A stretch of DNA of 64,000 bases, taken from the NCBI GenBank assembly GCA_963755715.1, contig CAVWLW010000001.1, positions 96,001 to 160,000 of the forward strand. Direction: 5' to 3'. Position 1 is the first letter of the stretch; each line of letters begins with the position of its first letter. This stretch comes from an uncultured delta proteobacterium (GTDB lineage: Bacteria; Desulfobacterota; Binatia; UBA9968). The translations under genes were made by a program, and so were the position numbers. This document shows positions 4,576 through 50,344 of this stretch, piece by piece. Under the pieces are notes generated by a model. The model worked only from the letters and a program-made list of their open reading frames with translations. It made no database searches and was not told the DNA's origin.

Positions 4576-5646
4576 GTGATGCGCTCGATCATCTTTGTCA
4601 TTATTCTTTTTGCGGTCTCGTCATCCCTGGCGTCGGCCCAACTCAAGCCGAGTTCAACCTCGCCTTTTACCTGGCGCGAAGCCCAGGCGTCAGAAGATTC
4701 GGAGCTGGATCGGTTAAATCGCGCGTTCGTTCAGTTGGCCGACCATGCTCGTCCCGCGATCGTACAGATCCGCGTGACCACGCAGGACGCAAAAGGCAAC
4801 CCGGCGCCGCCTCTCGGCAGTCGCGGCTCCGGCTTCATCATCGACGCGCACGGTTACATCTTGACCGCTCAGCACGTGGTCGAAAAATCCAAAGAGATTG
4901 AAATCCGGCTCGCCGACTCACAACGGCTGCCGGCGCAGGTCATCGCCACAGATAGCCAGATCGACGTGGCCATTCTCAAAATCACCACCGAGCGAGAGTT
5001 GCCGACTTTGGCGTTCGGCAATTCCGATACGATTCACGTTGGCGATCTGGCCGTCGTCTTCGGTTATCCCTTCGGTCGCGAAAGCTCGATGAACTTGGGA
5101 ATTGTCAGCCGTTCGGGGCGAAGTTATCCCGATTCGGCGAGTTATGATTTTATTCAAACCGATGCCGGCGCCTACCCCGGCGGCAGCGGCGGCCCGCTGC
5201 TGAATAGCAAAGGGCACGTGATCGGCATGATCACGATGGCGGCAGAACGGGGCAATATGGGATTCGCCACGCCGATCAACGCCATCAAGCGGATCCTGCC
5301 TCGTTTGGTGAAAGGAGAGAAATTTACCTGGGGCTGGCTCGGGGTCCAGATGTCGGATATCTCGCTCGAACAGGCAAAGATACTCGGACTTCATCCCGTG
5401 AAAGGGGTAGTGGTCAGTTCCGTGCTGCCGGGACAGCCCGCCGCGCGCGGCGGCATTCAAAAACAGGACGTGATTTTGTCGGTCAACGAAACCCAAGTCG
5501 ATAGCCCGCGCGATGTCTCGCGCATGATCGGCGGCTTAGAAGCCGGCCGAGTCGTCCATTTGACCATCCTGCGCAAGGGTAAATCCATGCAGCTTTCCGT
5601 TCCGCTGGGTATTCGCCCCGAATCGACCAAGGCGCGCGAGGGTTGA
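4576..5646 (+). CDS. HtrA/DegS-like serine protease with one PDZ domain
   Basis: Signal peptide, GSGFII, TAQHVV, IQTDA..PGGSGGPL, WLGV PDZ start. Confidence 0.88.
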   Translation: MMRSIIFVIILFAVSSSLASAQLKPSSTSPFTWREAQASEDSELDRLNRAFVQLADHARPAIVQIRVTTQDAKGNPAPPLGSRGSGFIIDAHGYILTAQHVVEKSKEIEIRLADSQRLPAQVIATDSQIDVAILKITTERELPTLAFGNSDTIHVGDLAVVFGYPFGRESSMNLGIVSRSGRSYPDSASYDFIQTDAGAYPGGSGGPLLNSKGHVIGMITMAAERGNMGFATPINAIKRILPRLVKGEKFTWGWLGVQMSDISLEQAKILGLHPVKGVVVSSVLPGQPAARGGIQKQDVILSVNETQVDSPRDVSRMIGGLEAGRVVHLTILRKGKSMQLSVPLGIRPESTKAREG

Positions 5647-5655
5647 TTTTTACTT

Positions 5656-8109: not shown

Positions 8110-8213
8110 GATGAGCTCCTTGGAGTCGTAATCGAGTCGAGAATAGGGACTCGGTCGGCGCTCGTCAACTGCTTGCCATTGCTACGGCCGAGCATAATTC
8201 CTATAATCCGTCG

Positions 8214-9635: not shown

Positions 9636-9636
9636 G

Positions 9637-10011
9637 CTACGGCTGCCCGCCCATAGCAGCCAGGGAAAACACTCTCTGGCCGAGCGGCTTGACGTATTTA
9701 TTTTCTCGCTTAAGCAGCACATCGCGCAGGTATTGCGGGTCAAAGCCCAATAAATCGCAGATGTTGGTAAAGGAAAATAGCCAATCGGTACCGTTATCCA
9801 TCACCCATTCAATCGCGTTTTCATAATTGCTCCGCGCTACACTGTTCCTCGACCCGCGGTATTTTTCCAAACATTCGACCGCATCCTTTAAAACCGCGAT
9901 CATGAGGCGTTTTTCACCTTCCAGTTTACGTGACAAACCTCCCGAACCGTAAAACTGCGAAGGTAAAAAAATATCGGGTTCAAGAATCCTTGCTAAAAAA
10001 TCATCGTACAT
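9637..10011 (-). CDS. Uncharacterised small helical protein (paralog of 18480..18935)
   Basis: GAGGAG RBS; shares PDI..Q, E..LM.AVL.DAV.C and FSF.NIC..LG.D..Y.R with the second copy. Confidence 0.8.
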   Translation of the reverse strand: MYDDFLARILEPDIFLPSQFYGSGGLSRKLEGEKRLMIAVLKDAVECLEKYRGSRNSVARSNYENAIEWVMDNGTDWLFSFTNICDLLGFDPQYLRDVLLKRENKYVKPLGQRVFSLAAMGGQP

Positions 10012-10044
10012 TGCAACCAGTCTCCTCGTTAATTTGAAACGCAT

Positions 10045-10073
10045 TCTATAACATACACGCTAATAGCGTGCAA
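10045..10073 (-). promoter_or_regulatory. Sigma70-like promoter overlapped by a perfect palindrome (candidate operator)
   Basis: Minus strand TTGCAC-17-TATAGA; CACGCTA-A-TAGCGTG at 10056-10070. Confidence 0.5.
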
Positions 10074-10258
10074 GAATAAAATCCACCCAACCTGTGGTGT
10101 AAGAGAATTCCTATCTAGCCAGCAAATTTAGCTACTTAACGACCTGTTGATAAAATCCCTACCGTGAGCTGGATCGGAAGAATAGGCGTGGCCCGAAGAA
10201 GCCTCAAAGCCAGCAGGCCGAGATCCATTTGGTAGAGGTAGTTAAGGAAGCTCTATGG

Positions 10259-10969
10259 CTAAATATCGTCCATCAACCCGGCCAGCTTGGTTTTGGCGGC
10301 GTTGTGGTCCCAAACCTTTTGCACGACGGAATCTTTGCGCCGCTGTTTCATCACCCGCTGCGTTTCATCCTCGCTGTAAACCAAAACCGGACCGAGCAAA
10401 GAAGCTTTATAAAACCGTGCTGCGGCTTCTTCCAAGTCGACACAGCCGGCAAATACCCATTCGATCGAATGCGCCACGACCATTGAGCCATGCCCACGCA
10501 GCATAACCGCGTCGGCATTGCCCAGAGCTTTTGCCACCGCGTCGCCTTGCTCGATCGTATGGATAAGCGCCGGATCCATATATTTCGGTAACGGCCCCGG
10601 CCCGAAAAAGGCGCCAGGATTAGAAGTTGCCGGGTAAAAGGGCTTATCGACCATCGATAAGGTAGCCACCATATGGTTATGAAGGTGGGCCACGCTCTGG
10701 ATGTCGCTGCGCGCTTTATACGCCCGCGCGTGCATATTGACCTCCGACGGCGCTTTGTATTTGCCTTCGATCACTTTACCTTCAAAATCAGTGATCACCA
10801 TATCGTCGGGCTTAACTGTCGCGCGGCTCACCGGATGAGGCAAGATCAGCAGGTGATCTGAACCAGGGATGCGCACGCTGATATGCCCGCTGTAATCTAC
10901 CAATCCGGCATTAAATAACATGCGCGAAGACATGGCGAGTTTGGTTTTAAGTTCTGATAAATCCGACAC
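10259..10969 (-). CDS. Class II aldolase/adducin family protein
   Basis: SGHISVR, PSEVNMH, AHLHN, MLRGHG. Confidence 0.88.
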   Translation of the reverse strand: MSDLSELKTKLAMSSRMLFNAGLVDYSGHISVRIPGSDHLLILPHPVSRATVKPDDMVITDFEGKVIEGKYKAPSEVNMHARAYKARSDIQSVAHLHNHMVATLSMVDKPFYPATSNPGAFFGPGPLPKYMDPALIHTIEQGDAVAKALGNADAVMLRGHGSMVVAHSIEWVFAGCVDLEEAAARFYKASLLGPVLVYSEDETQRVMKQRRKDSVVQKVWDHNAAKTKLAGLMDDI

Positions 10970-11167
10970 AAAAATTCTCCTCTCTCTGGTAGGCTAATAT
11001 TTTCGTGCTATATCTTTCATCGCGTCAGAGTTCAACCGCGGCCCGCAGTCTGTGTCAGTCGACGGCTCAAATAACTTGATTATCGCGAGTATAAACCGCG
11101 CCGGAAAAAGACTCCGTGGCCCTACCCGCCGCTCAAAAGCGGCGGCCTTGGAAGGAATGCAAGGGCA

Positions 11168-12955
11168 ATGACTACAAATAGCGCCGAAGGCATCCGATGG
11201 GATCTAAGCGATCTTTACGCAGCGCACGACGATCCGCGCATCGACCTGACGATTAAGGATTGTTATGCCCGCGCCGAGAGATTTGCCGATCGTTTCCGCG
11301 CCTTGATGCAAGACCATGAAACGCTCACGGCCGAGTCCCTTCTTCAGGCACTCAGGGAATTGGAAGTCATTTATGAATCCTTGGGCCGCGTCGGCAGTTA
11401 CGCCGGACTGCTCTACGCGGCCGATACGGCAAAGCCGGAATATCAAGATTTGACGCAACGAGTCGAGCAGCGCTCGACTGAGGTTCGCAACCTGCTGCTA
11501 TTTTTCGAGCTGGAATGGCTCAAATTCGATGACACGATCGCGAGTCGGCTCATGGCGGACCCTACATTAGAAGCTTACCGTCATTATCTCATAAGCCTGC
11601 GCCGCTACCGGCCGCATACGCTCACCGAGTTGGAAGAAAAGGTCATCAACGACAGAGACAACACCGGGCGCAATGCCTTCGGCCGGCTTTTTTCCGAGAT
11701 CACGTCGTCGCTGACATTCGCCTTCGAAAAGCCAGGCGAAAAAGCAGACCTCAATCTCAGTCAGATTCTCTCACTGCTCCACGAATCCGACCGCGCGCTG
11801 CGGCAGAGCGCCATGGAGACGCTCTATCAAGGTTTGTCTCAGCAGGGCCAAGTGCTGACGTTCATCTATGACACGCTCATCCAAGATCAGTTGACCATGG
11901 ACCGCCTGCGCAGTTATCCCGATCCCATGGCCCAGCGCCATCTGTTCAATGAAATCGACGGCGCGGCCGTGAAAACGATGATGGCGGTGGTGGAGGAAAA
12001 CTACGGTTTGGCGCAGGACTACTTTCGTCTAAAAGCCAAACTGCTTAAGCTTCCGCGTCTTGCGCTCTATGACCAGTACGCGCCAGTGGGTAAAGAAGTT
12101 AAACCATTTCCGTACCATCAAGCGCGCCAAGTGATTCTCGCAGCGTTCGACGCTTTCGATCCGAAGTTTCGTCAAATCGCCGCGGAATTTTTTGATAAAA
12201 ATTGGATCGATGCCGAGATTCGCAAAGGCAAACGCGGCGGCGCCTTCTGCGCTTCGCCTTCGCCGCAGTTACATCCGTACATTCTGTGCAACTACGATGA
12301 CAACCTGCGTGACGTCATGACCGTCGCCCACGAGCTCGGCCACGGTCTGCATGGCTGCTTAAGCCGTAAGCAAAGTTATTTCAATTACGACACGCCGCTC
12401 ACCACCGCCGAGACCGCTTCGGTGTTCGGCGAAATGCTCGTCTTCGATTACTTGCTGGAGCATCAAACCGATCCGGAAGTGCAAATCGCGCTGCTCGCCG
12501 GCAAAATCGAAGACATCTTCGCCACCGTATTCCGTCAAAACGTGCTCACCCGATTCGAGGAAAAGGCGTTTGCCGCAAGAACCGAAAAACGCCTTACGCC
12601 CGACGCGCTCGGAACTCTTTGGCTCGAAGCCAACGGAAAATACTACGGCGATGCGGTTGAGATACCGGATGGCTACCGTTGGGGCTGGTCGTATATCCCG
12701 CACTTCATCCATTCACGGTTTTACTGCTACAGCTATGTCTTCGGCCAGCTCTTGGTCCTCGCGCTTTATCGAATGTACAAAGACGAAGGAAAGAGTTTCG
12801 TGCCGAAATATCTCGCGTTGCTCGAAGCGGGCGGTTCGGATACACCCGAAGCACTGCTCAAGCCGCTTGGTGTGAACACTCGCGCCGCAGAATTTTGGCA
12901 GAAAGGGTTTGAAGAGATCCGTGCACTAACTGCTAAACTACAAACATTGATATAG
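11168..12955 (+). CDS. pepF: Oligoendopeptidase F (M3B)
   Basis: WDLSDLY, KGKRGGAFC, HELGH, AETAS, IPHF..FYCYSY. Confidence 0.92.
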   Translation: MTTNSAEGIRWDLSDLYAAHDDPRIDLTIKDCYARAERFADRFRALMQDHETLTAESLLQALRELEVIYESLGRVGSYAGLLYAADTAKPEYQDLTQRVEQRSTEVRNLLLFFELEWLKFDDTIASRLMADPTLEAYRHYLISLRRYRPHTLTELEEKVINDRDNTGRNAFGRLFSEITSSLTFAFEKPGEKADLNLSQILSLLHESDRALRQSAMETLYQGLSQQGQVLTFIYDTLIQDQLTMDRLRSYPDPMAQRHLFNEIDGAAVKTMMAVVEENYGLAQDYFRLKAKLLKLPRLALYDQYAPVGKEVKPFPYHQARQVILAAFDAFDPKFRQIAAEFFDKNWIDAEIRKGKRGGAFCASPSPQLHPYILCNYDDNLRDVMTVAHELGHGLHGCLSRKQSYFNYDTPLTTAETASVFGEMLVFDYLLEHQTDPEVQIALLAGKIEDIFATVFRQNVLTRFEEKAFAARTEKRLTPDALGTLWLEANGKYYGDAVEIPDGYRWGWSYIPHFIHSRFYCYSYVFGQLLVLALYRMYKDEGKSFVPKYLALLEAGGSDTPEALLKPLGVNTRAAEFWQKGFEEIRALTAKLQTLI

Positions 12956-36567: not shown

Positions 36568-37552
36568 CTAAACCGACGCGAGCAGGCCACGCTGAATTAG
36601 GTCTTGCGCCAGCTTCACCTTGTAAATGTTGTCTTTTAGCGGTTTAGCGCCTTCGAGGGCAATCTCGCCGGCCTGTTTCGCCGTTGCTTGATCGAGTCTT
36701 TTTGCCACGCAAAAATTCTTCGGCTTTTGCCGCTCGCCAGGGAATCGGCGCGACGCCGCCCATGACAACGCGCGCTTCGCGCACTGAGCCGCCGCTGTTC
36801 TCGACAATCGTGGCGACGGCAACGATGGCATGGTCCCACGCCAGTCGCTCGCGCACTTTATGATAGAAGCCCTTGCTGCCGGCTTTGGGTGTCGGCACGA
36901 ACAGTTCGGTGACGACCTCGCCGGGGCCGAGGATATTTTCTCGCTTGTAGTCCACCGAAGGCGGCACGAAAAATTTCTCTAACGGAATCGTCTTGTCGCC
37001 GGCCGGTCCGGCGATCTTGATTTGCGCATTGAGAGCCACCAGCGCGGGCGCGGTATCGGATGGATGCACGATGTAGCTCGGCCCGGCGCCGAGGATCGCA
37101 TGAAAACGGCTATCGCCTGTCACCGTGTAGCAAACCTGACCGCCTTTGCGCAGACAGGTGAAATTCGACGAACGAAAATACCAACAGAAGGGCCGCTGAC
37201 AAATGTTGCCGGCGATCGTGCCGGCGTTGCGGATCTGCGGCGACGCCGCTTCGCCCGCCGCGTCGGAAAGTATCAGCAGTTTTTCCCGAATCGCCGGGTG
37301 TTCTTCGATGTCCGCGAGCTTGGCCAGTGCTCCGATGCGAAACCCACCGCGCTCTTCTTTGATATAGTCAAGGCCAGGGATCGTCTTCAAATTAATCAGA
37401 TAATCGGGCTCGACGACGTGATCCTTCATCAACTGCAAATACTCGCTGCCGCCGCCGACCACCGCCGCGGTTTTTTTCTGCTGGTGAAATTTTTGCAGCA
37501 GACCGACCGCTTCTTTGACGCTTTTCACATCGATATTTTCGAAGCTCTTCAT
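36568..37552 (-). CDS. Xanthine dehydrogenase family FAD subunit with 4Fe-4S insert (PaoB/YagS-like); frameshift near 36700
   Basis: ASPQIRNAGTIAGN, CQRPFCWYFR..C...G..C, HPSD. Confidence 0.9.
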
Positions 37553-37569
37553 GACGGCTCCCTTCTCAT

Positions 37570-39787
37570 TTAAACCTGAACCGCGCGGACGATCTTGTCG
37601 GGCGTGATCGGCAGCTCTTTGAACCGTTTGCCGGTGGCGTTGAAAATCGCGTTGGCGATGGTTGCCACGGCCGCCGTGATCGGCGGCTCGCCGACTACTT
37701 TGCCACCAAAGACGCCGTAGGGATCAAAATGCTCGACAAAGATGACTTCGACTTCGGGCGCTTCCAAATGCGTCGGTACCTTGGCGTCACGGTAGTTCGG
37801 ATTGATCGGAATCCCGGTCACCCGATCGATCAATAGCTCTTCGGAAAACGCCATGCCGATACCCTGCACGACGCCGCCTTTGATCTGGCTTTCCGCGGTC
37901 AGGCGATTGAGGATCGTGCCGCTGTCGTGCGCCGCGACGTATCGGGTGATGCGCACATGCCCCGTCCAGGTGTCGACTTCGACCTCGGCGAAGTGGGCTG
38001 AAAAGCATTTACCGTCCATCTCTTTGGGAAAATTCGGATTGGTCGTGGCGCGGCCGATGAGATCGCCGCTGTCTTTTACGATTTGTTCCAGAGGCGTCTT
38101 CTCGGCAGGATCGCTTTTGAGAAAAACCTGACTATCGCGGAGGTCAAGATCTTCGAGTTTGGCTTTTAGCTTTGGCGCGGCTAGGGCAAAAATTTGCTTG
38201 CGCACATCTTCTGCCGCCGCCACGACCGCCGGTCCGGTAAACGCGGTCGTGCGGCTGCCCGACTCACCGACCGAATAAGGCGTCACATCGGTATCACCGT
38301 TAGTGAGCTGAATTTGATTGAGTGGAATCCCCAGCGCTTCCGAAGCGATGATCGCCATCGTCGATTTCGCTCCGGTGCCGATGTCGGTGACGCCGACCAA
38401 AACATGCGCGGTGCCGTCCGGATTGATGCGGATCGTCGCGGCGCCGAGACCCGGGCGAAATGGATAGCCGCCGAGCGCCATGCCAATGCCATGTTTGTTC
38501 GGACCGGCCATGGCGCCGGGCTTGTGCCATTTGTCACTAAAGCCGATTCGCTTCGAGCCTTCGAGGATGCACTGCTCTAAATAGTTCGAAGTGAAGGCAA
38601 GCTTGCCTTTGGATTTTTGCGCGCGGTTGCGCATGAACATATCGAGCGGATTGATGCCCAACTCAAAGGCGATCTGATCGAGAAACGACGCGAAACCGAA
38701 CACCGATTGCGGATAAGCCGGTGCGCGATAGTTGGCGGCCACCACCGTGTTGGTGTGCACCGGCTTGATGACTTTTTTAAAGTTCGGGATGTTGTAGAAA
38801 TCGGTGCCGCTTAAATTGCCGCTCTGCTTTCGGTACGCGCCCATATTGGTTACAGCGTCAAGCGTGACAGCGGTAATCGTGCCGTCGTTTTTAACGCCGG
38901 CTTTGTAGTGCTGCTCCGACGACCAGCGTCCGTGCATGCCGATGAAATCGTCTTCGCGGGTGAATTCGAGCTTGACCGGCTGCGCGGCAGCTTTAGCAAG
39001 CATCGCCGCCATGTAGTCGTAGTCCTGCGCCTGATTCTTGTTGCCGAAGCCGCCGCCCATGTATTTGCACACCACCCGCACTTTGCTCAGCGGCAGACCA
39101 AAATCCTTGGCGATATCCGTGCGCGCGTTGGAAACCCCTTGGGTCGAAGCGTAAACGGTGAGCTTACCCGCGTCCCATTTGGCGATGCTGACGCGCCGCT
39201 CCATCTGCGCGTTGTTGACATGCTTGCTGATGTACGTGTCTTCGAATACCCGGTCAGCTTCCTTAAATCCCTGCTCTACATTTCCCCAGGATTCTTCGAT
39301 CGGCGCGCTGAACGCTCCCTTGCCGACGGAAAGATTGCCGTTGGGCGCGATCTTCGGCGCGTCGGGTTTGAGCGCTTCGTTGGCGTCCAGCACGTAGGGG
39401 ATCTTTTCGTACTTGACGTCGATCAATTTCAAGGCATCTTCGGCGATATGCCGGTCGGTGGCGGCCACCGCCGCCACCGGATCGCCGACATAACGCACCG
39501 GATTGTTGAAAATATAGCGGCTGATGGGTGAGCCCGCCGCTCGACCACGGCACCTGCGCGTTGCCGTGATGAATAATCGCCTTCACGCCCGGGAGTTTAT
39601 CCGCTTTGGAAGTATCGATCCCGATAATCTTTGCATGCGGCACGTTGCTGCGCAGGACACGCGCGTAGAGCATACCAGGAAGCTGAAGATCGCCGGTGTA
39701 CTGCGCTTGCCCGGTCACGCGCTCGTAGGCATCGATGCGCGGAGTCTTCTTGCCGACGACGGAAAATTCTTTTTGTGCTTGTGCCAT
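37570..39787 (-). CDS. Xanthine dehydrogenase family molybdopterin-binding subunit; frameshift near 39520
   Basis: VTGQAQY..D, YMGGGFGNK, YRAP, DIGTG, GSRT, QIKGG..QG.G, GKVVGE. Confidence 0.92.
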
Positions 39788-39798
39788 AACGACCTCCC

Positions 39799-40413
39799 TT
39801 AACTCGCCTTCGCCGCGGCGGCGAGCACGGCGGCGACCTCGCGATTGTAGTTGCCGCAGCGGCAGAGATTGCCGGACAAACCGCGGCGCGCTTGGGCTTC
39901 CGTCGGTTTAGGATTCTTCATCAGCAGCGCCTTGCCGGACATGATCTGTCCGGAAGTGCAAAAGCCGCATTGCGGCCCGTCGTGTTCGATAAATGCTTCC
40001 TGCACCGGATCGAGCTTGTCGCCCTTTACCAGCCCCTCGACGGTGACGATTGCCTTGCCCTGCATCCATACCGCTAATTGGCTGCACGAATACATGTTGC
40101 GGCCGTCGATGATCACCGTGCAAGCGCCGCACTCGCCGCGGTCGCAGCCGATCTTGGTACCCGTGAGTCCCAGCTCGTCGCGCAATACTTCGGCGAGGGT
40201 TTGACGGTGCTCGACTTCGACGCGGTAGCTCTTGCCGTTGACTTTAAGCGCCACCGCGGTCTTGCCGAGCGCCGTGCCCGTGCTTTCGGCGATGTACGCT
40301 TGCGCCGGATCGACTTTCACCAGTCCGGTCGAGACCACCGCCGTACCGATGGCGCCGCCGCCGATACCTTTGAGAAACGAGCGTCGGGAGAATTTCTGCT
40401 TTTCTTTTTCCAT
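39799..40413 (-). CDS. (2Fe-2S) subunit with Tat signal (PaoA/YagT-like)
   Basis: SRRSFLK; GCDRGECGACT; QCGFCT; CRC. Confidence 0.93.
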   Translation of the reverse strand: MEKEKQKFSRRSFLKGIGGGAIGTAVVSTGLVKVDPAQAYIAESTGTALGKTAVALKVNGKSYRVEVEHRQTLAEVLRDELGLTGTKIGCDRGECGACTVIIDGRNMYSCSQLAVWMQGKAIVTVEGLVKGDKLDPVQEAFIEHDGPQCGFCTSGQIMSGKALLMKNPKPTEAQARRGLSGNLCRCGNYNREVAAVLAAAAKAS

Positions 40414-41457: not shown

Positions 41458-42203
41458 CTAAGATTCCCAGCGATAGAGTTGGATTGTAGCGGGCTCGACC
41501 CTCGTATACCAACGCTCCCTCATAATCGGCGACGACGTTCAATTCGATCAATGACCAGCCCGGTACGTTGGCGTCGATCCGCGCCTGTTCGCCGGCTTGC
41601 GGCGAGGCCTATGTTTACCTCATCCAAGTCGCCCGATAGGCCGGTGCCCTTCGCTTTAAGGAACGCTTCCTTGCTCGTCCAACATTTATAAAACGCTTGG
41701 CGGCGCAGGTGCGCCGGCAGGGCGCGCAGCGCGGCTACCTCGCCGGCGGTAAAAAATCGCTCGGCGACTTCATCGAAGGCAAAATCCGCGTTGACAAACT
41801 CGACGTCGATACCGACTTCACGAGAACGAGCTACGGCCAGTAAGGCCACGCCGTGAGAATGAGAAAGGTTGAAGGCAACTCGGCTTTCCGCCTGGGGTGC
41901 GCCTAGTTTTGGTTTGCCGTGGCCGCCGAGGTCGAACTGCAAGTTTCCGGGGAGAGTCTCTGTATATTGCGCCAAGATCGAGCGCAAAGCGGCGTGTGCG
42001 ACCGTGAATAGCAAACGATCTTTGGCAAACTTGAACCTATCGGCGCGAGCCTGTTCTGCAGCCGATAGCAGAGCGGCGTATGCGCCTAAGTTGTCGGCGG
42101 CGGTTTCCGCCGCCTCAATCAGCCAAACATGGATTTCGTTTGCATCCAAAAGGAGACCGGCAGGGGGCGAGCGCCAAACGGATTTGAAAGATTGGTTCGG
42201 CAC
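41458..42203 (-). CDS. Sfp-type 4'-phosphopantetheinyl transferase (3' frameshifts)
   Basis: GKP, FNLSHS, GIDVE, WTSKEAFLKAKGTG. Confidence 0.9.
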
Positions 42204-42488: not shown

Positions 42489-42803
42489 TCAGGCGAAATC
42501 TTGGTGTGGCGCGATCCCTGTCACAATCACTTTATCGCCTTCCCGAATGATTTGAAGATCGCACGGGCCGTGGAACAAAATCATCGTGCGGGGATGTTCG
42601 TAAACGGTTGTTTTATGGGGAATCTCTTCGATGTAAACGTCGAACATGCGGCCTGCCGGCAAATTGACGGTCTGAGTGTGCATTAAATCGCCTTCGAAGA
42701 AAACTTCGATCCAGTTGCGATTCTCGGTAACCGCGAGAATGAGACCGGCGGCGTTCTTAATCGTCGCGATCAACTCCTCGCCTTCGATCGTTTGCGCCGC
42801 CAC
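42489..42803 (-). CDS. Hypothetical beta-rich small protein, last gene of the operon
   Basis: 104-aa ORF starting 12 nt after the ligase stop. Confidence 0.7.
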   Translation of the reverse strand: MAAQTIEGEELIATIKNAAGLILAVTENRNWIEVFFEGDLMHTQTVNLPAGRMFDVYIEEIPHKTTVYEHPRTMILFHGPCDLQIIREGDKVIVTGIAPHQDFA

Positions 42804-42815
42804 GGCTAGAATCCG

Positions 42816-44345
42816 TTAATTCGCCAGCAAGGTTTGCGCGTCGCGAATCGATTTGCCGGACGAAGTGCGCGGCAGTGAATCGCGCACGACGATTTTATCC
42901 GGCACTTTGAAATTGGCCAAATTAGCGCGCAAAAACGCCAACAACTCTTTTTCACTGAGGTGCGCGCCGGGACGGGGCACGACGGCGGCACCGATCACCT
43001 GGCCGCGTTTGCCATCCGGTATTGCGAAGACGATATTTTCCTGCACGCCTGGATAAGTATAGATCAGGTTTTCCACTTCAGCGGGGTAAACGTTGAGCCC
43101 GCCGGTGATGATCATGTCGTCGCGCCTGCCGAGATGGTAATAGTAGCCGTCCGTGCCGCGTTTGCCGACGTCGCCGGTATAAAGCCAGCCGTCGCGAACC
43201 CGCTCGGCGGTGGCGTCGGGCCGGCGAAAATAACCTTTCATCACGTGAGGACCGCGGGTGATGATCTCGCCGGGCTCATCGACGCCCAGCTCATTGCCTG
43301 CCTGGTCGATGATCTTAACTTCGACACCCGGCACGGCCCGGCCGATGCTGCCCACTTTTGCTTCGGCCTGGTTCGGCTCTACCAAAGTGATTAGCGGAGA
43401 GGTCTCCGTCAAGCCGTAACCTTGAATGACTTTGATATGCGGCTGGGCAGATTGAAAGGCACGCAAGAGCGGCAGCGGAATGCTGGTGCCCATCATCGCG
43501 GCGATTTTCACGCTGCTGGTATCATAGCTCGCCAGATTTTTTACTCCCATCAAGAGCTGGAAGACGATCGGCACGCTTTCAAAAACACTGACCCGGTATT
43601 TTTGGATGCCCTCCAAAAGCGTGATCGGATTGATCTGATCGAAGATCACCAGCGTGTAACCGCGCTCGGCTAGTTCGTTGCAGACGACTGGCCCGACGAT
43701 ATGCGACATCGGCAAGATACAGCCGCGGATCGTCGATGTGTCGGTGATGCCGAACTCGCCCATCACGCGCGGATACTGGTTGAGATTGCGATAACTCAAC
43801 ACCACGCCTTTGGGCTCGCCGGTGGTGCCCGATGTGTAGAGAATCAATGCGTCGTCGTCGGCTTGCAAGTTTGGCGCAGACACCGTCCCGGCCGATGTCG
43901 CGCGCCGGCTTTCAAAGCTGCGCGTGCCGGTGCCGTTGACAATCCAGGTCGGGATCGACGTGAGTGTTTTAAAATTTTCTTCGACTTCCGAAAATAACTG
44001 GCTGTGCACGATCAGCAAACTCAGATCGGCATCGCTTAAAACCCCTTGCAGCTCTTTTCCCTTGAGCCGGGCGTCGAGGATGACCGTCACCGCGCCGATT
44101 TTCTGCGTCGCGTAATAACTGAGCGGTATCGCCGTGGAATTGGGTAGCAAAAGGCCGACCCGGTCGCCCCGGCGGATGCCTTCCCTTTGCAGATGCGAGG
44201 CCAACGCCTGCGCCTGGTGATTCAACTCGCCAAACGTTAGTTGCTCCTCCTTCGCGATAATCGCGGTTTTTTGCGCTTGACGAGCGGCGGTTTTTTCCAG
44301 AACTTCAGCCGCAAAAAAACCTACTGAATCGGTATGGTTTGCCAT
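42816..44345 (-). CDS. Acyl-CoA synthetase / AMP-dependent ligase
   Basis: YTSGTTGEPKG, QGYGLTE, TGD, GRRDD, GG.NVYP.EVE, PRT.SGK. Confidence 0.92.
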   Translation of the reverse strand: MANHTDSVGFFAAEVLEKTAARQAQKTAIIAKEEQLTFGELNHQAQALASHLQREGIRRGDRVGLLLPNSTAIPLSYYATQKIGAVTVILDARLKGKELQGVLSDADLSLLIVHSQLFSEVEENFKTLTSIPTWIVNGTGTRSFESRRATSAGTVSAPNLQADDDALILYTSGTTGEPKGVVLSYRNLNQYPRVMGEFGITDTSTIRGCILPMSHIVGPVVCNELAERGYTLVIFDQINPITLLEGIQKYRVSVFESVPIVFQLLMGVKNLASYDTSSVKIAAMMGTSIPLPLLRAFQSAQPHIKVIQGYGLTETSPLITLVEPNQAEAKVGSIGRAVPGVEVKIIDQAGNELGVDEPGEIITRGPHVMKGYFRRPDATAERVRDGWLYTGDVGKRGTDGYYYHLGRRDDMIITGGLNVYPAEVENLIYTYPGVQENIVFAIPDGKRGQVIGAAVVPRPGAHLSEKELLAFLRANLANFKVPDKIVVRDSLPRTSSGKSIRDAQTLLAN

Positions 44346-45320
44346 ATTGCAAATGCCCTCTGAAACGGTTTGTACCAGCGCGACAATTGCGCCAGCTCGC
44401 CTCGCTGTAATTTTAATTTTCCTTGCTGGGTCGCCATGAACGCGTCGATGCGATTGTTAAACACCGCGCGCCACCACTCCGCTTGACCGCCGATCAAGAA
44501 CTCACCGCCGTCACCGGGATTGAGTTCGGTAATCGTGCCATCGCGAAATTGCACCGTCCAAGTCTTGCCGCCCTCTTCGAGTAAGAGCGTCAACGAGGTC
44601 GTCAAACTCGTGGCGGCGCCATCGGCACGAAATTGCGAATCCTGATTGGCGCTATCGACCAATGCTTGCATGTGTTCTTGGGAGAATAGCGCATAGCCTT
44701 TTCCCGATTGCACCCCCACCCCAGTCGGCTTTTCTGTCGAATCAGCCGGCGGCGCCCCGCCTTTGCCTACCCGCTCTTTAAAAAATTGGCAATGCACCGC
44801 CTCTTCGAGCAAATCGGTGATCAGAAAGGCTTCCTGAAAATCCTTGCCGATAGCGACGGTGCCGTGTCCTTTGATAATCACCACCGGATGGTATTTGAGC
44901 GCTTCGACGACCGCCTGCGGCCGAGTCACCGTCGGCGTGTCCTGGGGAATGATCGGCACCTCGCCGATCGTATATTTCTCTTCATAGCTAAGCGGCACGA
45001 AGCTTTCATGCGTCAGCGAAAAAGCGAGCACCATGGGCGGGTGGACGTGGACGATCGCCTGCGCGTCGGTGCCGGCGTACACGGCCAGATGCATCGGCGT
45101 TTCACTCGACGCCCGCTGCGCCGTGTTGATCGGTTTGCCGTTCTGATCGAGCGCCACCAAATCCTTGGGCGAAAGAAAACCGAGCGGCGCATGCTGTCCG
45201 GTAATCATGAAACATTTCTTGTCGAGCCGGCAGCTTAGATTACCGCCCCAGCCGCTGACCAGCCGACGCTCAAAGAGCAGCTTGCCCCAGCCGAATCATT
45301 TCGCGTTCGAGGGTAGTCAT
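44321..45320 (-). CDS. Class II aldolase (FucA/Ald2/MtnB-like) fused to C-terminal SCP2 sterol-carrier-like domain; frameshift near 45290
   Basis: GGNLSCR, SSETPMH, VHVHP, KGHG; tail LFS.E.......N.D..F, W...F....DAFMA..QGKLKL.RG. Confidence 0.82.
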
Positions 45321-45323
45321 CGA

Positions 45324-46841
45324 TTAATTCTTGAACAGCGACCAGGGCACTACTTCCGATTCAAGCGGACGAACGGCAACACCCGCAGGGCAGATATCCT
45401 TGCCCAAGAAGGTCGAAACATCGTTGTCGGGAGTCGAAGCTTTGCATGCGTCGCCGTTGAAAAGCTCAATGGCAACGCCGTGCAGGCGCGCCAACTGAAC
45501 GGCGAGCAACGACCCGCAAATCCCGCTTGGCCCCTCCGCCGCTAGGTTTTCGTAAAACAGACACAGCTTGCGAATCTCGCCTTGGGCGAAAAGCGTTCCC
45601 ATGACATTGTCGGAGATCAGGGTCGTCGGCGCGCGACGCTTCAATAGCTCGCGCGCGACCACCTGCGCGCCCCAGAGCTGCGGCCGCATCTCGGGCACGA
45701 GAATGCTTGCGGCTTGCTCCGCCTTCAGGGCGCTCAGCAAAAAGGCATATTGATTCTTCGGCGGCACGCCGTAAATCAGAATATATTTTCCGTCTTCGCT
45801 TGCCTTTTCCGGATCGGGCGTTGCCGCGATCTGATACTTGCGGCGAAAAGTTTCCGGCGTGTAGAGATCATCGAAGCCGATCAGATGGGTAACCAGTCGT
45901 GCCGGCGTGACATCGAACGACGGATAACGCGCGTTGAGAACGGGATCGTCAACGACGGTGATCGGCTGTCCCTGAAACTTCAGCAACTCTGCTACTGGGC
46001 GTTCCTCAATCGGCACATCGATGCCTCGTTCCAACGAGCGCGGATCCTGCACCAATGCATGAAACGGTACGCCGTACTCGCGCGCCATGAGCGCCAGCGG
46101 ATAGGTGCCGACCTTATTGATGATATCGCCGTTTTGCGCCACGCGATCGGCGCCGACGATCACCGCGTTGACTTCACCCGCAGCCATTACCTGTGCCACC
46201 GCGGCATCGGGAATCAGCGACACCGCAACGCCCGCTTGAGCAAGCTCCCAAGCAGTCAAGCGCGCGCCCTGCAGGTAGGGCCGCGTTTCCGTGGCGACCA
46301 CGGAAAACTCTTTGCTCAACTCGCGACAACACTGAGCGACGGCAACCAGCTCACCGCTCACGTTGCAATGCGTCAGCACGCGCGCCGGATTCGGCAATAT
46401 GGCTGCCGCCCGGCGCGCCCGGGCTTGCCGCGCGTGCATGATCTGCTGGCCGAATTCGCGCGCCTGCCTGCCGATAGTCTCGCCGGCGGCGGCGCCGGCA
46501 GGCAATCGGACGAACCATTCGTCAAAGAAACACTCGAGGCCGCGAAAATCGAAGGTCGGCCGGGCGGCGCAAAATTGCTGCGTCATTTCTGCGATGCGCG
46601 CCCGCAGCGCGGCGGCATCGCTGTGCGTATCACGTTGCGCCAACAGCGCGCCGCTATAAAGAAAGGCCAGCACCTGCCCGAAGGCGCGGGTTTTCATTTC
46701 GCGCACGGCGTCGAGCGCTTGCTCGACTTCGCTGATTTGGATGTAGTGGATTTCCTCGGGCACGAGGGTCTCGTCGAGAATCTTAAACCCGTCGCCATCC
46801 CACAACACCGGTTCGAACAACGGACTCGGATTGACATTCAT
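45324..46841 (-). CDS. mtnA: Methylthioribose-1-phosphate isomerase-like protein with C-terminal degenerate domain duplication
   Basis: LDET.VP, ARPT, THCN, ETRPYLQGARLTAWEL, GADR..NGD..NK.GT, PIEER, FDVTP. Confidence 0.85.
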   Translation of the reverse strand: MNVNPSPLFEPVLWDGDGFKILDETLVPEEIHYIQISEVEQALDAVREMKTRAFGQVLAFLYSGALLAQRDTHSDAAALRARIAEMTQQFCAARPTFDFRGLECFFDEWFVRLPAGAAAGETIGRQAREFGQQIMHARQARARRAAAILPNPARVLTHCNVSGELVAVAQCCRELSKEFSVVATETRPYLQGARLTAWELAQAGVAVSLIPDAAVAQVMAAGEVNAVIVGADRVAQNGDIINKVGTYPLALMAREYGVPFHALVQDPRSLERGIDVPIEERPVAELLKFQGQPITVVDDPVLNARYPSFDVTPARLVTHLIGFDDLYTPETFRRKYQIAATPDPEKASEDGKYILIYGVPPKNQYAFLLSALKAEQAASILVPEMRPQLWGAQVVARELLKRRAPTTLISDNVMGTLFAQGEIRKLCLFYENLAAEGPSGICGSLLAVQLARLHGVAIELFNGDACKASTPDNDVSTFLGKDICPAGVAVRPLESEVVPWSLFKN

Positions 46842-46867
46842 AACTTTAACGGGACGCGCGTGGTGGT

Positions 46868-47602
46868 TTACAGATATTGCAACGCCTTGCGCGCCACATC
46901 GATGGTTTTTTTCTCCGCCTCGAAGAACTGCGGATCGCGAAAACCAAACTTGCCGTGGAGACATTCATCGGAGACCGCTAGCACGGCACCGGCCTTCTTG
47001 CCGCGCACCTGCGCGATCGTCAGAAAGGTCGACGTCACCATGTCGATGCTCGAGAGGTTTTGCTCGCTCAATTGCTGAATCAGCTCCGGAGTTTCCTGAA
47101 ACAGCGCGTCGGTGGTGAAGATCCAGCCGAGATGATAGCGCACGTTCAAACTGTCGGCGGCCTTCTTGAGAGCGTCGACAATCTCCGGGTGAGCAATAGT
47201 GGAAAAATTCTCCGCGACATAGTAGCGCGAGGTGCCTTCGCCGCGCAGCGCCCCAGTAACGATCACCAGATCGCCGATGCTTACGTTTTCCTGCAGCGAG
47301 CCGCAACTGCCGACGCGGATCAATGCCTCAGCGCCGGCGCCGCAGAGAATTTCAGTGGTGATCGCCGTATCCGGCGCGTAACGGCCGCCATTGCCGACCG
47401 TGACGCGCTTGCCGTCGAGCGCCCCCGTGTACATCTCGTAATCGAGAAAAGTGAAATTCTTTTGCGGATTTTCCAGCAATCGTAAAATCGCTTCGCTGCG
47501 TTCTTTAGGACCGGGGATCAGCGCGTAAGCGCCGAGGGAGTCCGGCTTGAGACCGAGCATCGACAGCATGCGTTGCGGCGTAAAGTGTGCTTCTTTAAGC
47601 AT
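46868..47602 (-). CDS. Nucleoside phosphorylase (NP-I, uridine/purine phosphorylase family)
   Basis: LIPG...R, IRVGSCGSL, RGEGTS..Y, TTDA.F.E, AVSD. Confidence 0.88.
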   Translation of the reverse strand: MLKEAHFTPQRMLSMLGLKPDSLGAYALIPGPKERSEAILRLLENPQKNFTFLDYEMYTGALDGKRVTVGNGGRYAPDTAITTEILCGAGAEALIRVGSCGSLQENVSIGDLVIVTGALRGEGTSRYYVAENFSTIAHPEIVDALKKAADSLNVRYHLGWIFTTDALFQETPELIQQLSEQNLSSIDMVTSTFLTIAQVRGKKAGAVLAVSDECLHGKFGFRDPQFFEAEKKTIDVARKALQYL

Positions 47603-47604
47603 GA

Positions 47605-48828
47605 TCAGAGCGCCTGATCGATAAATTCGAGCAAATCTTGCGTCGGCAACGCAGGTTCTTTGAGGTCAGCGAAAGACCGCCCGCAGAGCGCGCTCGAGGT
47701 GAGCACGACTTCGGCGCCGGTGGCCGCGGCCTCACGCAAGCGATCGGCGGCGTTCCACTGCGCCAGCTCGGGATCCGCTTCGGGCACTCCACCCCCGCCG
47801 CCGCAGCACCAGCTCCAGCGTCGATTACGTTCCATCTCGACTAGCTCGAGGCCGGGAATCGCGCGAAGAATTCTTCGCGGCGGCTCATAAACGCCGCAGC
47901 CGCGGCCGAGATGGCAGGAGTCGTGGTAGGTGACTTTCTTCTTTATCGGCTTGGTAAATTTTAGAGAACCCGAATCGAGCAGCCGGGCGACATATTCAAT
48001 GCCATGCAGCGCTTCAAATTGGCCAGCGCCGGTCTTGGCGTATTCGCGCCAGATTCGTTGACAACTGCCGCAGGCGACAACCACTTGGGTAATACCGCCG
48101 GCAGCGATTGTCGCCAGATTATTTTCTTTCAAGCGTTCGTACTCGCGACGGAAGCCGAGGTCGAAGGCATAAAGGCCGCAGCATTTTTCCTCGCTGCCGA
48201 GAAAGACAAAATCTTCGCCCGCCTTTTGCATGATCTTGGCGAGCGCGACCGCGCCGCTCCGGCCACTCGAACGATCCGCCGAACAGCCGGCGAAAAGCAA
48301 GGTGCGCGCGTTGGACTCGCCCAGTTTCTTGAGCCCAAGCCCCTCGGCCCAAGCGCCCCGGTCGACCTTTGGCTGCGCCCACGGGTTGTCATGTTGGCGC
48401 AAGCCTTCGTAAATCGGTCGATGCGGCTCGATCGGACCTTCCTTCTCGGTGATCTCCTCGCGCATGGCCACGGTGATATCCCAGGGTCCATAACCGTCGT
48501 CGCGCACGCCGCAAAGTTCCTGGCACATCAGGCAATTCGTGCAGGCGTAGATGACTTCTTTGAGCTCAGGCGTAATCGGATCCAGACCGTGAAAAACCCG
48601 CTGCGCCATCAGCCAGCGCGACTTCGGCGTGTGACGCTGGAAGCGATAAAACTCATAGGGTGGACACTTCTCTTTCGGTCCCACCACATCTTCCATTGGA
48701 TTGGCCGGACCATGGCCGTAACAGGAGCCGCACAGAACGCAGCCGCTGCTGCGCTCGCTCAAATCTTTGGCGTAGAGCCATCTTTTGACCCGTTCGAGCC
48801 CGAGCAATTTTTTCTCTTCGTTTTTCAT
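47605..48828 (-). CDS. Fe-S oxidoreductase with 4Fe-4S motifs and two CCG domains (GlpC/HdrD-like)
   Basis: CVLCGSC..CP, CTNCLMCQELC, EKCCG, TYHDSCHLGR, WCCGGGGG. Confidence 0.9.
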   Translation of the reverse strand: MKNEEKKLLGLERVKRWLYAKDLSERSSGCVLCGSCYGHGPANPMEDVVGPKEKCPPYEFYRFQRHTPKSRWLMAQRVFHGLDPITPELKEVIYACTNCLMCQELCGVRDDGYGPWDITVAMREEITEKEGPIEPHRPIYEGLRQHDNPWAQPKVDRGAWAEGLGLKKLGESNARTLLFAGCSADRSSGRSGAVALAKIMQKAGEDFVFLGSEEKCCGLYAFDLGFRREYERLKENNLATIAAGGITQVVVACGSCQRIWREYAKTGAGQFEALHGIEYVARLLDSGSLKFTKPIKKKVTYHDSCHLGRGCGVYEPPRRILRAIPGLELVEMERNRRWSWCCGGGGGVPEADPELAQWNAADRLREAAATGAEVVLTSSALCGRSFADLKEPALPTQDLLEFIDQAL

Positions 48829-48851
48829 CGAACCGCGTTCAAGCAAAATTA

Positions 48852-49005: not shown

Positions 49006-49458
49006 TCAATTCGTCAACGATTCTTGATTGAGCTTGCGCAACAGCGCGGAGAGTTCTTTCTGTTCTGGACCAGCGAGTATTGTGAAGATTTTCGAGACGC
49101 TCGATTCAAAAAGGGGAATCGTACTCTTGTACACCTTGGCCCCTTTGTCGGTCAGCACCACATGCACGACGCGGCGGTCATTTTCGTCGCGCTTGCGCGT
49201 GACCAGCTTTTTCTCTTCGAGACGGTCGACAATGCCGGTGAGATTGCTGACGGTGACCATCATTTTTGCGCCGATCTCGCCGAAGGGCAGTCCACCGGCG
49301 TAGCCGATCGTCGCCAACACGTAAAACTGTGGCGACGTGAGGCCAACTTTGTCTAAATCAGCTTCCAGTTTTTTGTGCGATTGCAGGCTGAAGCGAAGAA
49401 AACGGATCCAAAGGCTAGTTGCATAAGATGTGAAGAACGGACGTTTGTAAACTCTCAC
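49006..49458 (-). CDS. MarR-family transcriptional regulator
   Basis: LTSPQFYVL, SNLTGIVDRLEEK.LV.R...E.DRR....LT.KG. Confidence 0.92.
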   Translation of the reverse strand: MRVYKRPFFTSYATSLWIRFLRFSLQSHKKLEADLDKVGLTSPQFYVLATIGYAGGLPFGEIGAKMMVTVSNLTGIVDRLEEKKLVTRKRDENDRRVVHVVLTDKGAKVYKSTIPLFESSVSKIFTILAGPEQKELSALLRKLNQESLTN

Positions 49459-49612
49459 GCTTTGCACTTTATTCGCACGGCCACTAAAAAGCAACTTCGT
49501 TGGCGCGAGCGCGCGTTCAATAATTATGGACCGGCCCATTTCATTGCAAGCCGTGCGACCGAGTGTTAATGAGTGCAAAAAGAGATCGCTGGCGAGGAAC
49601 TGATAAAGCGCG

Positions 49613-50344
49613 ATGAGACTGCATATTCTCGGTTGCGGCGACGCCTTCGGCAGCGGCGGACGCAACCAAAGTGGCTACCTGATCGAGGCCGCTGACCGGT
49701 TGTTTCTCTTGGACTGCGGTCCAACTACGTTGCCGGCGATGAAGCGCGCCGCCATCGAACCGCGCCGTCTGGATGCGATCCTGCTAAGCCATCTGCACGG
49801 CGATCACTTCGGCGGCGTGCCATTTTTTTTAATCGAATATCTTTATCACAAACCACCGCACAGCCCACTAACGATCGCCGGTCCGCCCGGAACAGAAGAA
49901 CGGGTCCGCCAACTGTTCGACCTGATGTACGGCGGCGCCAAGGAAACGCCGTTCCTCCGTTTCCAAGTTTTGACTCCCGAAAAACTGCAGAGCGTCAAGG
50001 ACATCGAGGTTTTTCCATTTCGCGTGCCGCATCAAATGAATGACATTTCACTCGGGCTGAAGGTCGCTTACCAAGGCAAGCAGATCCTTTTTTCCGGCGA
50101 TTCGGCATGGACCGATTTGTTCATCGAGCACGCACGCGACACCGATCTGTTTCTGTGCGAGTGTTCTTTTTATCACGAGGAGCCGGGCATGCACGTGAAT
50201 TACCAGATCCTGCGGTCAAACCTGGCGCGCTTGGCATGCAAGAAGCTTGTGCTCACCCATCTCGGCGAGGACATGCTCGCGCGCGCCGAGAATTTGGACG
50301 CAAGGCTGACCGTGGCAAAAGATGGAATGGTGATCGAGGTCTAA
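49613..50344 (+). CDS. MBL-fold metallohydrolase (RNase Z-like)
   Basis: LGCGDAFGSGGR, LDCG, SHLHGDHFGG, SGDS, LTH. Confidence 0.88.
   Translation: MRLHILGCGDAFGSGGRNQSGYLIEAADRLFLLDCGPTTLPAMKRAAIEPRRLDAILLSHLHGDHFGGVPFFLIEYLYHKPPHSPLTIAGPPGTEERVRQLFDLMYGGAKETPFLRFQVLTPEKLQSVKDIEVFPFRVPHQMNDISLGLKVAYQGKQILFSGDSAWTDLFIEHARDTDLFLCECSFYHEEPGMHVNYQILRSNLARLACKKLVLTHLGEDMLARAENLDARLTVAKDGMVIEV

Follow-up and report, generated by a model that had tools for sequence, protein, structure and literature searches.

A class II aldolase joined to an SCP2-fold domain in a conserved operon of uncultured Binatia: a candidate dihydroxyacetone phosphate-shunt-type enzyme for hydrophobic aldehydes

The gene described here encodes a class II aldolase fused to a sterol-carrier-like SCP2 domain, and lies at 44321-45320 on the minus strand of a 64,000-nucleotide stretch of DNA from an uncultured delta proteobacterium of the Binatia (GenBank assembly GCA_963755715.1, contig CAVWLW010000001.1, positions 96,001 to 160,000; this whole stretch is called the window, and its numbering is used throughout). 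It stands in an operon together with genes for a nucleoside phosphorylase, a divergent MtnA-like isomerase and an acyl-CoA ligase. In the reading that we favour, with a probability of about one half, the protein would be an aldolase of the dihydroxyacetone phosphate (DHAP) shunt type, splitting a 5-substituted ribulose-1-phosphate into DHAP and a hydrophobic aldehyde, which would be held by the SCP2 domain and then oxidised and activated with CoA. The cleavage step alone, from 5-substituted ribulose-1-phosphate to DHAP and an aldehyde, is considered very probable on the gene content, since the trio of phosphorylase, MtnA-type isomerase and class II aldolase matches the scheme of the DHAP shunt and of the 5-deoxyribose pathway, as given in the accessible parts of the published accounts (PMC10986504, PMC12632272, PMC6079011).

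The catalytic part of the protein, residues 1-184 (44768-45320, minus strand), was delimited from Pfam Aldolase_II, invariant columns, alignments with the solved structures 2fk5 and 6btd, and Foldseek, and by these comparisons the gene encodes a FucA/DrdA-type metal-dependent class II aldolase domain. The Pfam family Aldolase_II (PF00596) is matched by the truncated open reading frame (ORF) of the assembly at 8.3e-31 (107.7 bits, with a cut-off of 22.2) and by the intact relative P0003 at 4.8e-40, over profile positions 2-182 of 183. The initial annotation had named an intact metal aldolase from the motifs E-x3-H, HxH and GHG, and this holds: the window protein contains GGNLS, SSETPMH (the E-x3-H element, with SSE ending at residue 73), HVH (H91 and H93) and GHG (H152). 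In a diverse set of 27 members, extending down to 25% identity, the residues G26, N27, S29, E73, H77, H91, H93, E113, H152 and G153 are invariant in all 27, the Glu and three His of the active site included. E73 is taken to be the FucA-type catalytic Glu, the three His the metal ligands and GGN.S/SS the phosphate-binding elements, roles which we assume from the FucA literature. The best solved relative of residues 1-190 is Thermus thermophilus 2fk5 (E 4.2e-19, 29-32% identity), and the SSE, HxH and HG motifs line up with this structure as well as with 6btd. Foldseek gave a TMt of 0.85-0.87 to 2fk5/2flf for the aldolase domain, and other solved relatives are Aquifex aq_1979, YgbL, FucA and the Bacillus thuringiensis 5-deoxyribulose-1-phosphate aldolase 6btd.

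The aldolase domain is followed by a variable linker, residues 185-207 (44699-44767, minus strand), recognised by low model confidence (pLDDT) and low identity. This is the Pro/Gly linker GKGGAPPADSTEKPTGVG which had been described as joining the two domains, and it is present in the window protein, with predicted disorder (pLDDT <50) for residues 187-204. Residues 208-332 (44324-44698, minus strand) then make up a C-terminal domain which, on the evidence of Pfam, family profiles and an AlphaFold model compared with Foldseek, has the SCP2 fold, as first proposed from the motif WWRAVFNNRIDAFMATQQGKLKLQRG, which is likewise present. The match of the window's own domain to Pfam SCP2 (PF02036) reaches 18.5 bits (E 0.0026), with a gathering cut-off of 21.3 bits; a match at E<=0.01 is found in 20 of the 27 diverse members, the top one at 3.9e-08, and nine full-length fused ORFs at distant loci score 27.5-38.8 bits, above the cut-off. 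The family profile A1 matches the solved SCP2 chains 2cx7 and 1wfr at 0.007-0.011, and the profile A3, which includes one canonical SCP2-like row (P0195), matches solved SCP2 at about 1e-12. The domain was modelled with a pLDDT of 91.1, and with this model Foldseek returned 40 matches at E<=0.001, all those listed at that level being SCP2 proteins or modules. The best of them are 1wfr and 2cx7, with template-modelling (TM) scores of 0.78-0.83 (for 2cx7, 0.78/0.83 with a root-mean-square deviation of 1.8 Å), and further SCP2 matches comprise AF1534, the C-termini of alkylsulfatases (SdsA1), UbiJ-SCP2 and the SCP2L domain of MFE-2.

Among 34 close relatives, the aldolase domains share a mean pairwise identity of 81% and the SCP2 domains one of 78%, against 20% in the linker, and in the diverse set the values are 40% (aldolase), 37% (SCP2) and 9% (linker); judged from these alignments, the SCP2 domain is under constraint equal to that of the catalytic domain. 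As regards the arrangement of the two, a predicted complex of the separate aldolase (1-186) and SCP2 (205-332) domains, run without controls, had a score of 0.01 and a mark of 0.32, and the whole-protein model, with a predicted TM score (pTM) of 0.85, gives a mere hint of a fixed domain arrangement.

In the assembly the gene is split between two frames. The 295-aa ORF occupies 44321-45208 on the minus strand, with its stop at 44321-44323, and the 37 N-terminal codons, starting with the ATG at 45320, sit in a different frame, so that the whole gene consists of 332 codons, a stop and one surplus base; the limits 44321-45320 set by the initial annotation were thus exact. Intact relatives, of 323-342 aa, are continuous across both frames, P0003 (N-terminus MTTLEHEMIGWGKLLFERRLVSGWGGNLSCRL) being 96% identical over 332 aa. 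The surplus base was located to 45291-45295 (minus strand) with contigs from three soil-metagenome runs of three studies (X1, X2 and X3), which were aligned to 44200-45500 at a likeness of 95-99% or higher. Relative to the window, one base is missing from each, X1 lacking it at 45291 and both X2 and X3 at 45294, and no further indels were seen in 44200-45500 in these contigs. The omission at 45291 yields MIRWGK, as in P0012, and that at 45294 yields MIGWGK, as in P0003, and the window sequence looks like a consensus blend of these two haplotypes. Moreover, the 30 substitutions of the contigs inside the ORF introduced no stop when re-translated, and record 4 of X1 covers 44608-45356 with its sole gap at the N-terminus, so that no stop between the domains, the observation that had been named as fatal to the fusion, occurs in the contigs examined. 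A pseudogene inactivated by frameshift, for which the first 37 codons, out of frame as assembled, would speak, is accordingly most improbable, since the contigs of three other studies lack the surplus base at two neighbouring positions, each restoring a known intact reading, while there is no other indel or stop and all relatives among the 120 matches listed have 323-342 aa. By these comparisons the gene at 44321-45320 is intact and the frameshift an assembly artefact. Other single-base indel artefacts may exist elsewhere in the assembly, and apparent frameshifts in the window are suspect as evidence for pseudogenes. Metatranscriptome contigs of the run X15 cover 44601-44900, 45127-45277 and 45393-45500, a coverage which, DNA carry-over being possible, does not imply expression.

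The fusion was found to be widespread. A word-indexed database search gave 906 proteins at E<=0.001, every one among the 120 matches listed being of 323-342 aa with full coverage, and an exhaustive search with the C-terminal domain gave 73 representatives at 50% identity, most of them with the SCP2-type domain at about residue 200-330 of a protein of some 330 aa. In the ESM Atlas, 8 clusters of at least 50 members are auto-named with Aldolase_II and labelled Binatota and Myxococcota, and SCP2 is annotated on 16-58% of members in the three clusters shown. In terms of genomes, the fusion occurs in 72 species representatives, nearly all titled Candidatus Binatia or "Deltaproteobacteria bacterium", and its C-terminal domain at E<=1e-10 in 14 of the 301 genomes of an even phylum sample. 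The family is abundant in uncultured soil and sediment bacteria, including most of the Candidatus Binatia species representatives found. No characterised protein with this architecture and no paper on the operon was found in the literature searched, subscription journals and supplements lying outside it; in this respect the statement that the architecture is not recognised from characterised proteins stood, although the architecture itself, on the database counts, is not rare and represents a large uncharacterised family.

Some apparent exceptions to the fusion were set aside. The 'stand-alone' SCP2 proteins P0177, P0180 and P0181 (146-151 aa) have starts that fall within the last helix of the aldolase (MNIF...), and at one distant locus, L102 (G289:C54, 7385-8366), aldolase and SCP2 lie in different frames, the shift being inside the linker; on sequence, both cases look like sequencing, assembly or gene-calling artefacts and not natural fission. 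In the 694-aa protein P0172, the N-terminal part of a radical S-adenosylmethionine (SAM) enzyme runs straight into the central part of an aldolase-SCP2 sequence; this protein is probably a chimera produced by assembly or gene calling, but it echoes the radical SAM/aldolase neighbourhood described below.

In Binatia the gene order is MarR regulator, CCG Fe-S protein, PNP_UDP_1 phosphorylase, MtnA-like isomerase, aldolase-SCP2 and acyl-CoA ligase, and the ligase is often followed by a 104-aa ORF and then by a phosphopantetheinyl transferase. The occurrence of each neighbour was counted over 72 Binatia-type loci, restricted to those with enough flank; Binatia synteny extends well past the operon, so that these counts partly reflect relatedness. 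All of these genes are on the minus strand of the window. The acyl-CoA ligase (42816-44345; Pfam AMP-binding, 1.6e-84) is downstream in 61/61 loci; its start overlaps the aldolase stop by 25 nt in the window, and its alignment overlaps the aldolase end by 22 nt in the 61 loci, which suggests translational coupling. The top NCBIfam family of the ligase is the long-chain-fatty-acid--CoA ligase PRK06187 (420 bits against a cut-off of 476, FadD-like), and it matches CoA ligases of the long-chain and bulky-acid kinds, with no acetate ligase among the 25 best families shown. Upstream of the aldolase, in 63/63 loci, lies the divergent MtnA-like isomerase with a small IF-2B-like C-terminal domain (45324-46964, true start probably the ATG near 46841), assigned by TIGR00512 at 228.6 bits (203.8 in a six-frame search), below the cut-off of 279, and with MtnA proteins as its best solved relatives. 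The PNP_UDP_1-family nucleoside phosphorylase (46868-47602; Pfam 5.1e-33) is present in 59/59 loci and has as top solved relative the hexameric 5'-methylthioadenosine (MTA) phosphorylase of S. solfataricus, 1jds (2.6e-26).

Residues 390-543 of the isomerase match a separate small IF-2B-like gene of other lineages (E 4.7e-31, local hidden Markov model, HMM), which there is a gene of its own, of about 155 aa, between the isomerase and aldolase-SCP2 genes; since this C-terminal half-domain is a separate gene elsewhere, a gene fusion or split distinguishes the lineages. In addition, a canonical MtnA, scoring 437-449 bits, is also kept in 6/6 of the operon-bearing genomes tested, in which the operon copy scores 153-204 against the cut-off of 279, and these scores suggest that the operon copy does a different job. 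Neither aldolase nor phosphorylase was found beside the canonical MtnA in 4 genomes, and no second shunt was revealed in this way.

The phosphorylase, isomerase, aldolase-SCP2 and ligase recur together in two distant lineages, where they are joined by an aldehyde dehydrogenase and a B12-binding radical SAM enzyme. The first was met among 13 genome loci belonging to other families of this phylum, 7 of which share the core: MMPL, purine nucleoside phosphorylase (PNP), IF-2B and aldolase-SCP2 are present in 7/7, the B12-binding radical SAM protein (about 486 aa) in 6/7 and the aldehyde dehydrogenase in 5/7, with the small IF-2B-like, LolA-like/DUF1329, DUF1302 and AMP-binding ligase genes in most of them and the order varying; the MMPL, LolA-like and DUF1302 genes represent a transporter of a kind that serves hydrophobic compounds, an addition made in just one of the two lineages. 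Another of the 13, L090, is a Binatia-type operon in a same-family genome. The second is a subfamily from metagenomes, an independent set of 80 loci with neighbours called by local HMMs, in which the order on one strand is ligase, PNP, IF-2B, small IF-2B, aldolase-SCP2, aldehyde dehydrogenase and B12-radical SAM, with counts of 34/36 for the ligase (ACS), 43/45 for PNP, 49/51 for IF-2B, 59/62 for small IF-2B, 45/48 for the aldehyde dehydrogenase and 28/35 for the radical SAM gene. The operon radical SAM protein is BchE/HpnJ-like, with 217 and 131 bits, both below cut-off (BchE 217 against 481), and its best solved relative is TokK (4e-10). The DUF1302/LolA-like/HAE3-RND module is of a type named AmeABCD in work on anaerobic monoterpene metabolism, and has shown co-fitness on fatty esters in Pseudomonas, as reported in the accessible parts of the sources (PMC6394551; 10.1101/2020.07.04.188060).

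A variant cluster was observed at two further distant loci, L099 (G035) and L102 (G289), both at about 5300-12500, where MMPL, LolA-like, DUF1302, aldolase-SCP2 and CoA ligase are kept and the phosphorylase and isomerase are swapped for a Zn-alcohol dehydrogenase, an LsrF-type aldolase/thiolase (NF006081, 505 bits, above cut-off) and a phosphomutase; a lipid A-type acyltransferase follows the cluster.

The domain identities, the conserved catalytic residues, the intact gene and the conserved operon are observed, whereas the reaction itself, what the substituent is, and what the SCP2 domain binds and does, are inferred. The nucleoside-phosphorylase/MtnA-like context sets the likely substrate class. 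The PNP-family phosphorylase would strip the base from a 5'-modified, adenosine-type nucleoside, and the divergent isomerase with its IF-2B-like module would convert the resulting 5-substituted ribose-1-phosphate into the ribulose-1-phosphate, which the aldolase would cleave to DHAP and an aldehyde bearing the 5-substituent. The SCP2 domain, tethered by the freely varying linker to the C-terminal end of the catalytic domain, may bind the hydrophobic tail of the substrate or of the aldehyde product and hand the aldehyde to oxidation, carried out by the aldehyde dehydrogenase in other lineages and presumably by another enzyme in Binatia, and then to CoA activation by the translationally coupled ligase. 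Oxidation and activation are proposed because the aldehyde dehydrogenase is directly downstream in other lineages and the CoA ligase is coupled; the hydrophobic, SCP2-held aldehyde is suggested because the SCP2 domain is strongly conserved, the ligase is of the long-chain type, a hydrophobe transporter accompanies the operon in one lineage and a canonical MtnA is kept in 6/6 genomes. In FucA, mutagenesis has indicated that the C-terminal tail covers the active site on its aldehyde side, and in the window protein the position of this tail leads into the linker and SCP2. The capture or channelling of a hydrophobic substrate or product at the cleavage step, as put forward in the initial annotation, is plausible, and the neighbours (FadD-like ligase, aldehyde dehydrogenase, one-lineage transporter) lend it indirect support.

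Several points weigh against a hydrophobic substrate or against the cleavage itself. None of the NCBIfam equivalog cut-offs for the fold is reached, the top score being 135.3 bits against 203 for NF006413 ('aldolase'), with 69.9 against 137 for TIGR03328 (MtnB) and 40.7 against 400 for TIGR01086 (FucA), and class II aldolase folds also host dehydratase, epimerase and decarboxylase chemistry. The radical SAM gene, the aldehyde dehydrogenase and the transporter are all absent from the Binatia operon. Three of the 13 distant genome loci (L091, L094 and L100) have none of these neighbours, L091 and L100 being short or at a contig end, and loci from related organisms are non-independent counts. The argument from coexistence with a canonical MtnA is weak because the bona fide 5-deoxyribose pathway also has a paralogous isomerase (DrdI) beside the housekeeping MtnA. 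Furthermore, the phosphorylase and the isomerase carry no lipid-binding module, which is awkward for greasy-tailed substrates, and plain 5'-deoxyadenosine salvage beside a radical SAM enzyme explains every enzyme except SCP2.

This last alternative is the most serious of those weighed, and is regarded as a real though distinctly less likely possibility. In it, the operon would carry out ordinary salvage of 5'-deoxyadenosine (or MTA) for a high-flux B12-binding radical SAM enzyme, from 5'-deoxyadenosine through 5-deoxyribose-1-phosphate and 5-deoxyribulose-1-phosphate to DHAP and acetaldehyde, and on through acetate to acetyl-CoA, with the SCP2 domain not binding the aldolase substrate and serving instead in membrane association, in assembly or in holding the lipid substrate of the radical SAM enzyme. 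Indeed, the phosphorylase, isomerase and class II aldolase trio is that of the DHAP shunt or 5-deoxyribose scheme, as far as the accessible parts of the sources describe it (PMC10986504, PMC12632272, PMC6079011); the radical SAM gene is in the operon at 28/35 loci of one lineage and 6/7 of another; the aldehyde dehydrogenase and CoA ligase would complete the way from acetaldehyde to acetyl-CoA; and neither phosphorylase nor isomerase bears a lipid module. However, SCP2 equals the catalytic domain in conservation and is attached to the aldolase, not to the radical SAM enzyme, which is itself missing from the Binatia operon; among the families shown, those that the ligase resembles are long-chain and bulky-acid ligases and not acetyl-CoA synthetase; and a general by-product pathway would not be expected to be tied to a single radical SAM gene and, as in one lineage, to a hydrophobe transporter as well. 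An improbable alternative is that the catalytic domain is no aldolase, being instead a dehydratase (MtnB-like), epimerase or decarboxylase that acts on the isomerase product. The fold hosts all these chemistries, and the matches include TIGR03328 MtnB (69.9 bits), a 3-oxo-tetronate 4-phosphate decarboxylase (85 bits) and YgbL structures, but those scores are far below cut-offs (137 for TIGR03328), the top sequence and fold matches are aldolases, DrdA included, the SSE motif with the FucA-type Glu is invariant, and the aldehyde dehydrogenase directly after the gene in 45/48 loci of the metagenome subfamily fits an aldehyde product.

A third alternative would place the enzyme in the trimming of the hopanoid side chain: adenosylhopane or phosphoribosylhopane made by HpnH and HpnG would be isomerised and cleaved to DHAP and a C32 hopanoid aldehyde, the SCP2 domain holding the hopane. 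Contig C69 of the own genome encodes HpnH (542 bits), a squalene-hopene cyclase (774 bits) and an HpnG-like protein (170 bits, just below 187), and HpnH/HpnG is the known case of lipid adenosylation by a radical SAM enzyme followed by a PNP homologue, according to the accessible part of PMC13459092. These hopanoid genes are, though, on a contig other than that of the operon, the operon phosphorylase scores just 24.9 bits against HpnG, and HpnH was above cut-off in none of 5 distant genomes with the fusion (91-99% complete, one closed); the hopanoid link was for this last reason dropped as a general explanation, and it has very little probability. A class II aldolase-fold match, one of 20 in the genome, also lies on contig C69 (G000:C69:153982-154395, minus strand), inside a 1339-aa open frame and about 2.5 kb from HpnH (C69:150446-151402).

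Returning to DHAP-shunt-type cleavage with a hydrophobic aldehyde, a more speculative extension, argued by analogy and thought unlikely on present evidence, is that the operon serves an adenosylation-then-trimming route which functionalises an unactivated hydrophobic molecule and ends as an acyl-CoA with a two-carbon extension. In such a route, a lipid or hydrocarbon would receive the 5'-deoxyadenosyl group of SAM through the action of the B12-binding radical SAM enzyme, in the way that HpnH modifies diploptene, and the phosphorylase would remove the adenine; the isomerase and aldolase-SCP2 would then cut off three carbons as DHAP, leaving a two-carbon aldehyde extension, which the aldehyde dehydrogenase and CoA ligase would turn into the acyl-CoA. 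If this is true, an inert hydrophobe would be converted, without any need for oxygen, into an acyl group that can be beta-oxidised or transferred, SAM acting as C2 donor and SCP2 as the handle that enables a sugar-phosphate enzyme to work on a greasy substrate.

The remaining genes around the operon can be briefly described. The cluster is headed by the MarR-family regulator (49006-49665; Pfam MarR 4.6e-17; 51/52 loci), and its first enzyme gene encodes the CCG/4Fe-4S dicluster protein, HdrD/GlpC-like (47605-48846; Pfam CCG 8.1e-29; 54/57 loci). At the other end, the small conserved 104-aa ORF (42489-42803), without Pfam or NCBIfam match, is found in 39/54 loci, and the Sfp-type 4'-phosphopantetheinyl transferase (41520-42203; Pfam ACPS 9.6e-17; 26/46 loci) is a loose neighbour. 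A few kb downstream of the operon, at 36644-40413 on the minus strand, stands a molybdenum-hydroxylase trio (FAD_binding_5/CO_deh_flav_C, MoCoBD_1/2 and Fer2/Fer2_2), whose Fer2 subunit is at the same relative place in 12/72 Binatia loci; this set could be the missing aldehyde-oxidising step, or could simply belong to the general synteny. The closest homologue in the own genome of the operon-type B12-radical SAM enzyme (G000:C21:27896-29368, plus strand, 40% identity) was considered as a partner of the window operon and discarded, no link having been found; it sits in a cluster that looks unrelated, its neighbours being a short-chain dehydrogenase/reductase (SDR), an FAD-linked oxidase, a TENA/PQQC-like protein and an O-methyltransferase.

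In the DHAP shunt and the 5-deoxyribose pathway, SAM by-products are known to be salvaged by three soluble enzymes. In the present case, an aldolase of the salvage type bears a lipid-carrier domain, and its operon gains a CoA ligase; in other lineages an aldehyde dehydrogenase and a B12-radical SAM enzyme are added, and in one of them a hydrophobe transporter as well. Should the substrate prove to be a nucleoside with a lipid tail, lipids would be built or degraded here in a new way, with SAM donating the carbon; should it be plain 5'-deoxyadenosine, the operon would still represent the first salvage variant running to acyl-CoA, and would raise the question of the role of SCP2 on a sugar-phosphate enzyme.

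Among characterised systems, the nearest are DrdA of Bacillus thuringiensis (6btd/6btg) and Ald2 of the DHAP shunt, which have the same class II aldolase fold, with SSE, HxH and HG aligned with the window protein, and which, in the accessible parts of their descriptions (PMC6079011, PMC10986504), also belong with an MtnA-type isomerase and an enzyme producing a sugar-1-phosphate, as the window gene adjoins both. In pathways of this kind the isomerase is encoded with a nucleoside phosphorylase or, instead of the latter, with a nucleosidase and a kinase. Isomerase and phosphorylase accompany the fusion in 63/63 and 59/59 loci in Binatia, in 49/51 and 43/45 in the metagenome subfamily, and in 7/13 distant genome loci. 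The window protein differs from DrdA in its C-terminal SCP2 domain, with 23% identity to 6btd in the fold alignment, and its pathway differs in the extra IF-2B-like module of the isomerase, in the CoA ligase and in the addition to the operons of an aldehyde dehydrogenase, a B12-radical SAM enzyme and transporter, or a CCG Fe-S protein. With the L-fuculose-1-phosphate aldolases (E. coli FucA 1fua; 2fk5/2flf) the window protein has the metal ligands and the Glu in common, whereas no fucose genes are near the window gene and the short C-terminal tail of FucA is replaced by the linker and SCP2. With the SCP2 proteins (T. thermophilus 2cx7/1wfr, A. fulgidus AF1534, and the UbiJ and alkylsulfatase modules) it has in common the same five-strand/helix fold, but at about 20% identity, with a family-specific, highly conserved C-terminal motif, RWYKPFQRAF..WQTIP, and as part of a sugar-phosphate aldolase. 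Finally, in the HpnH/HpnG system a radical SAM enzyme adds adenosyl to a lipid, diploptene, and a PNP homologue then removes the adenine, as set out in the accessible part of PMC13459092. In the distant operons, too, a radical SAM enzyme occurs together with a PNP homologue and accessories of lipid type, but this radical SAM enzyme is B12-binding and BchE/HpnJ-like, and the isomerase and aldolase steps are without a hopanoid counterpart.

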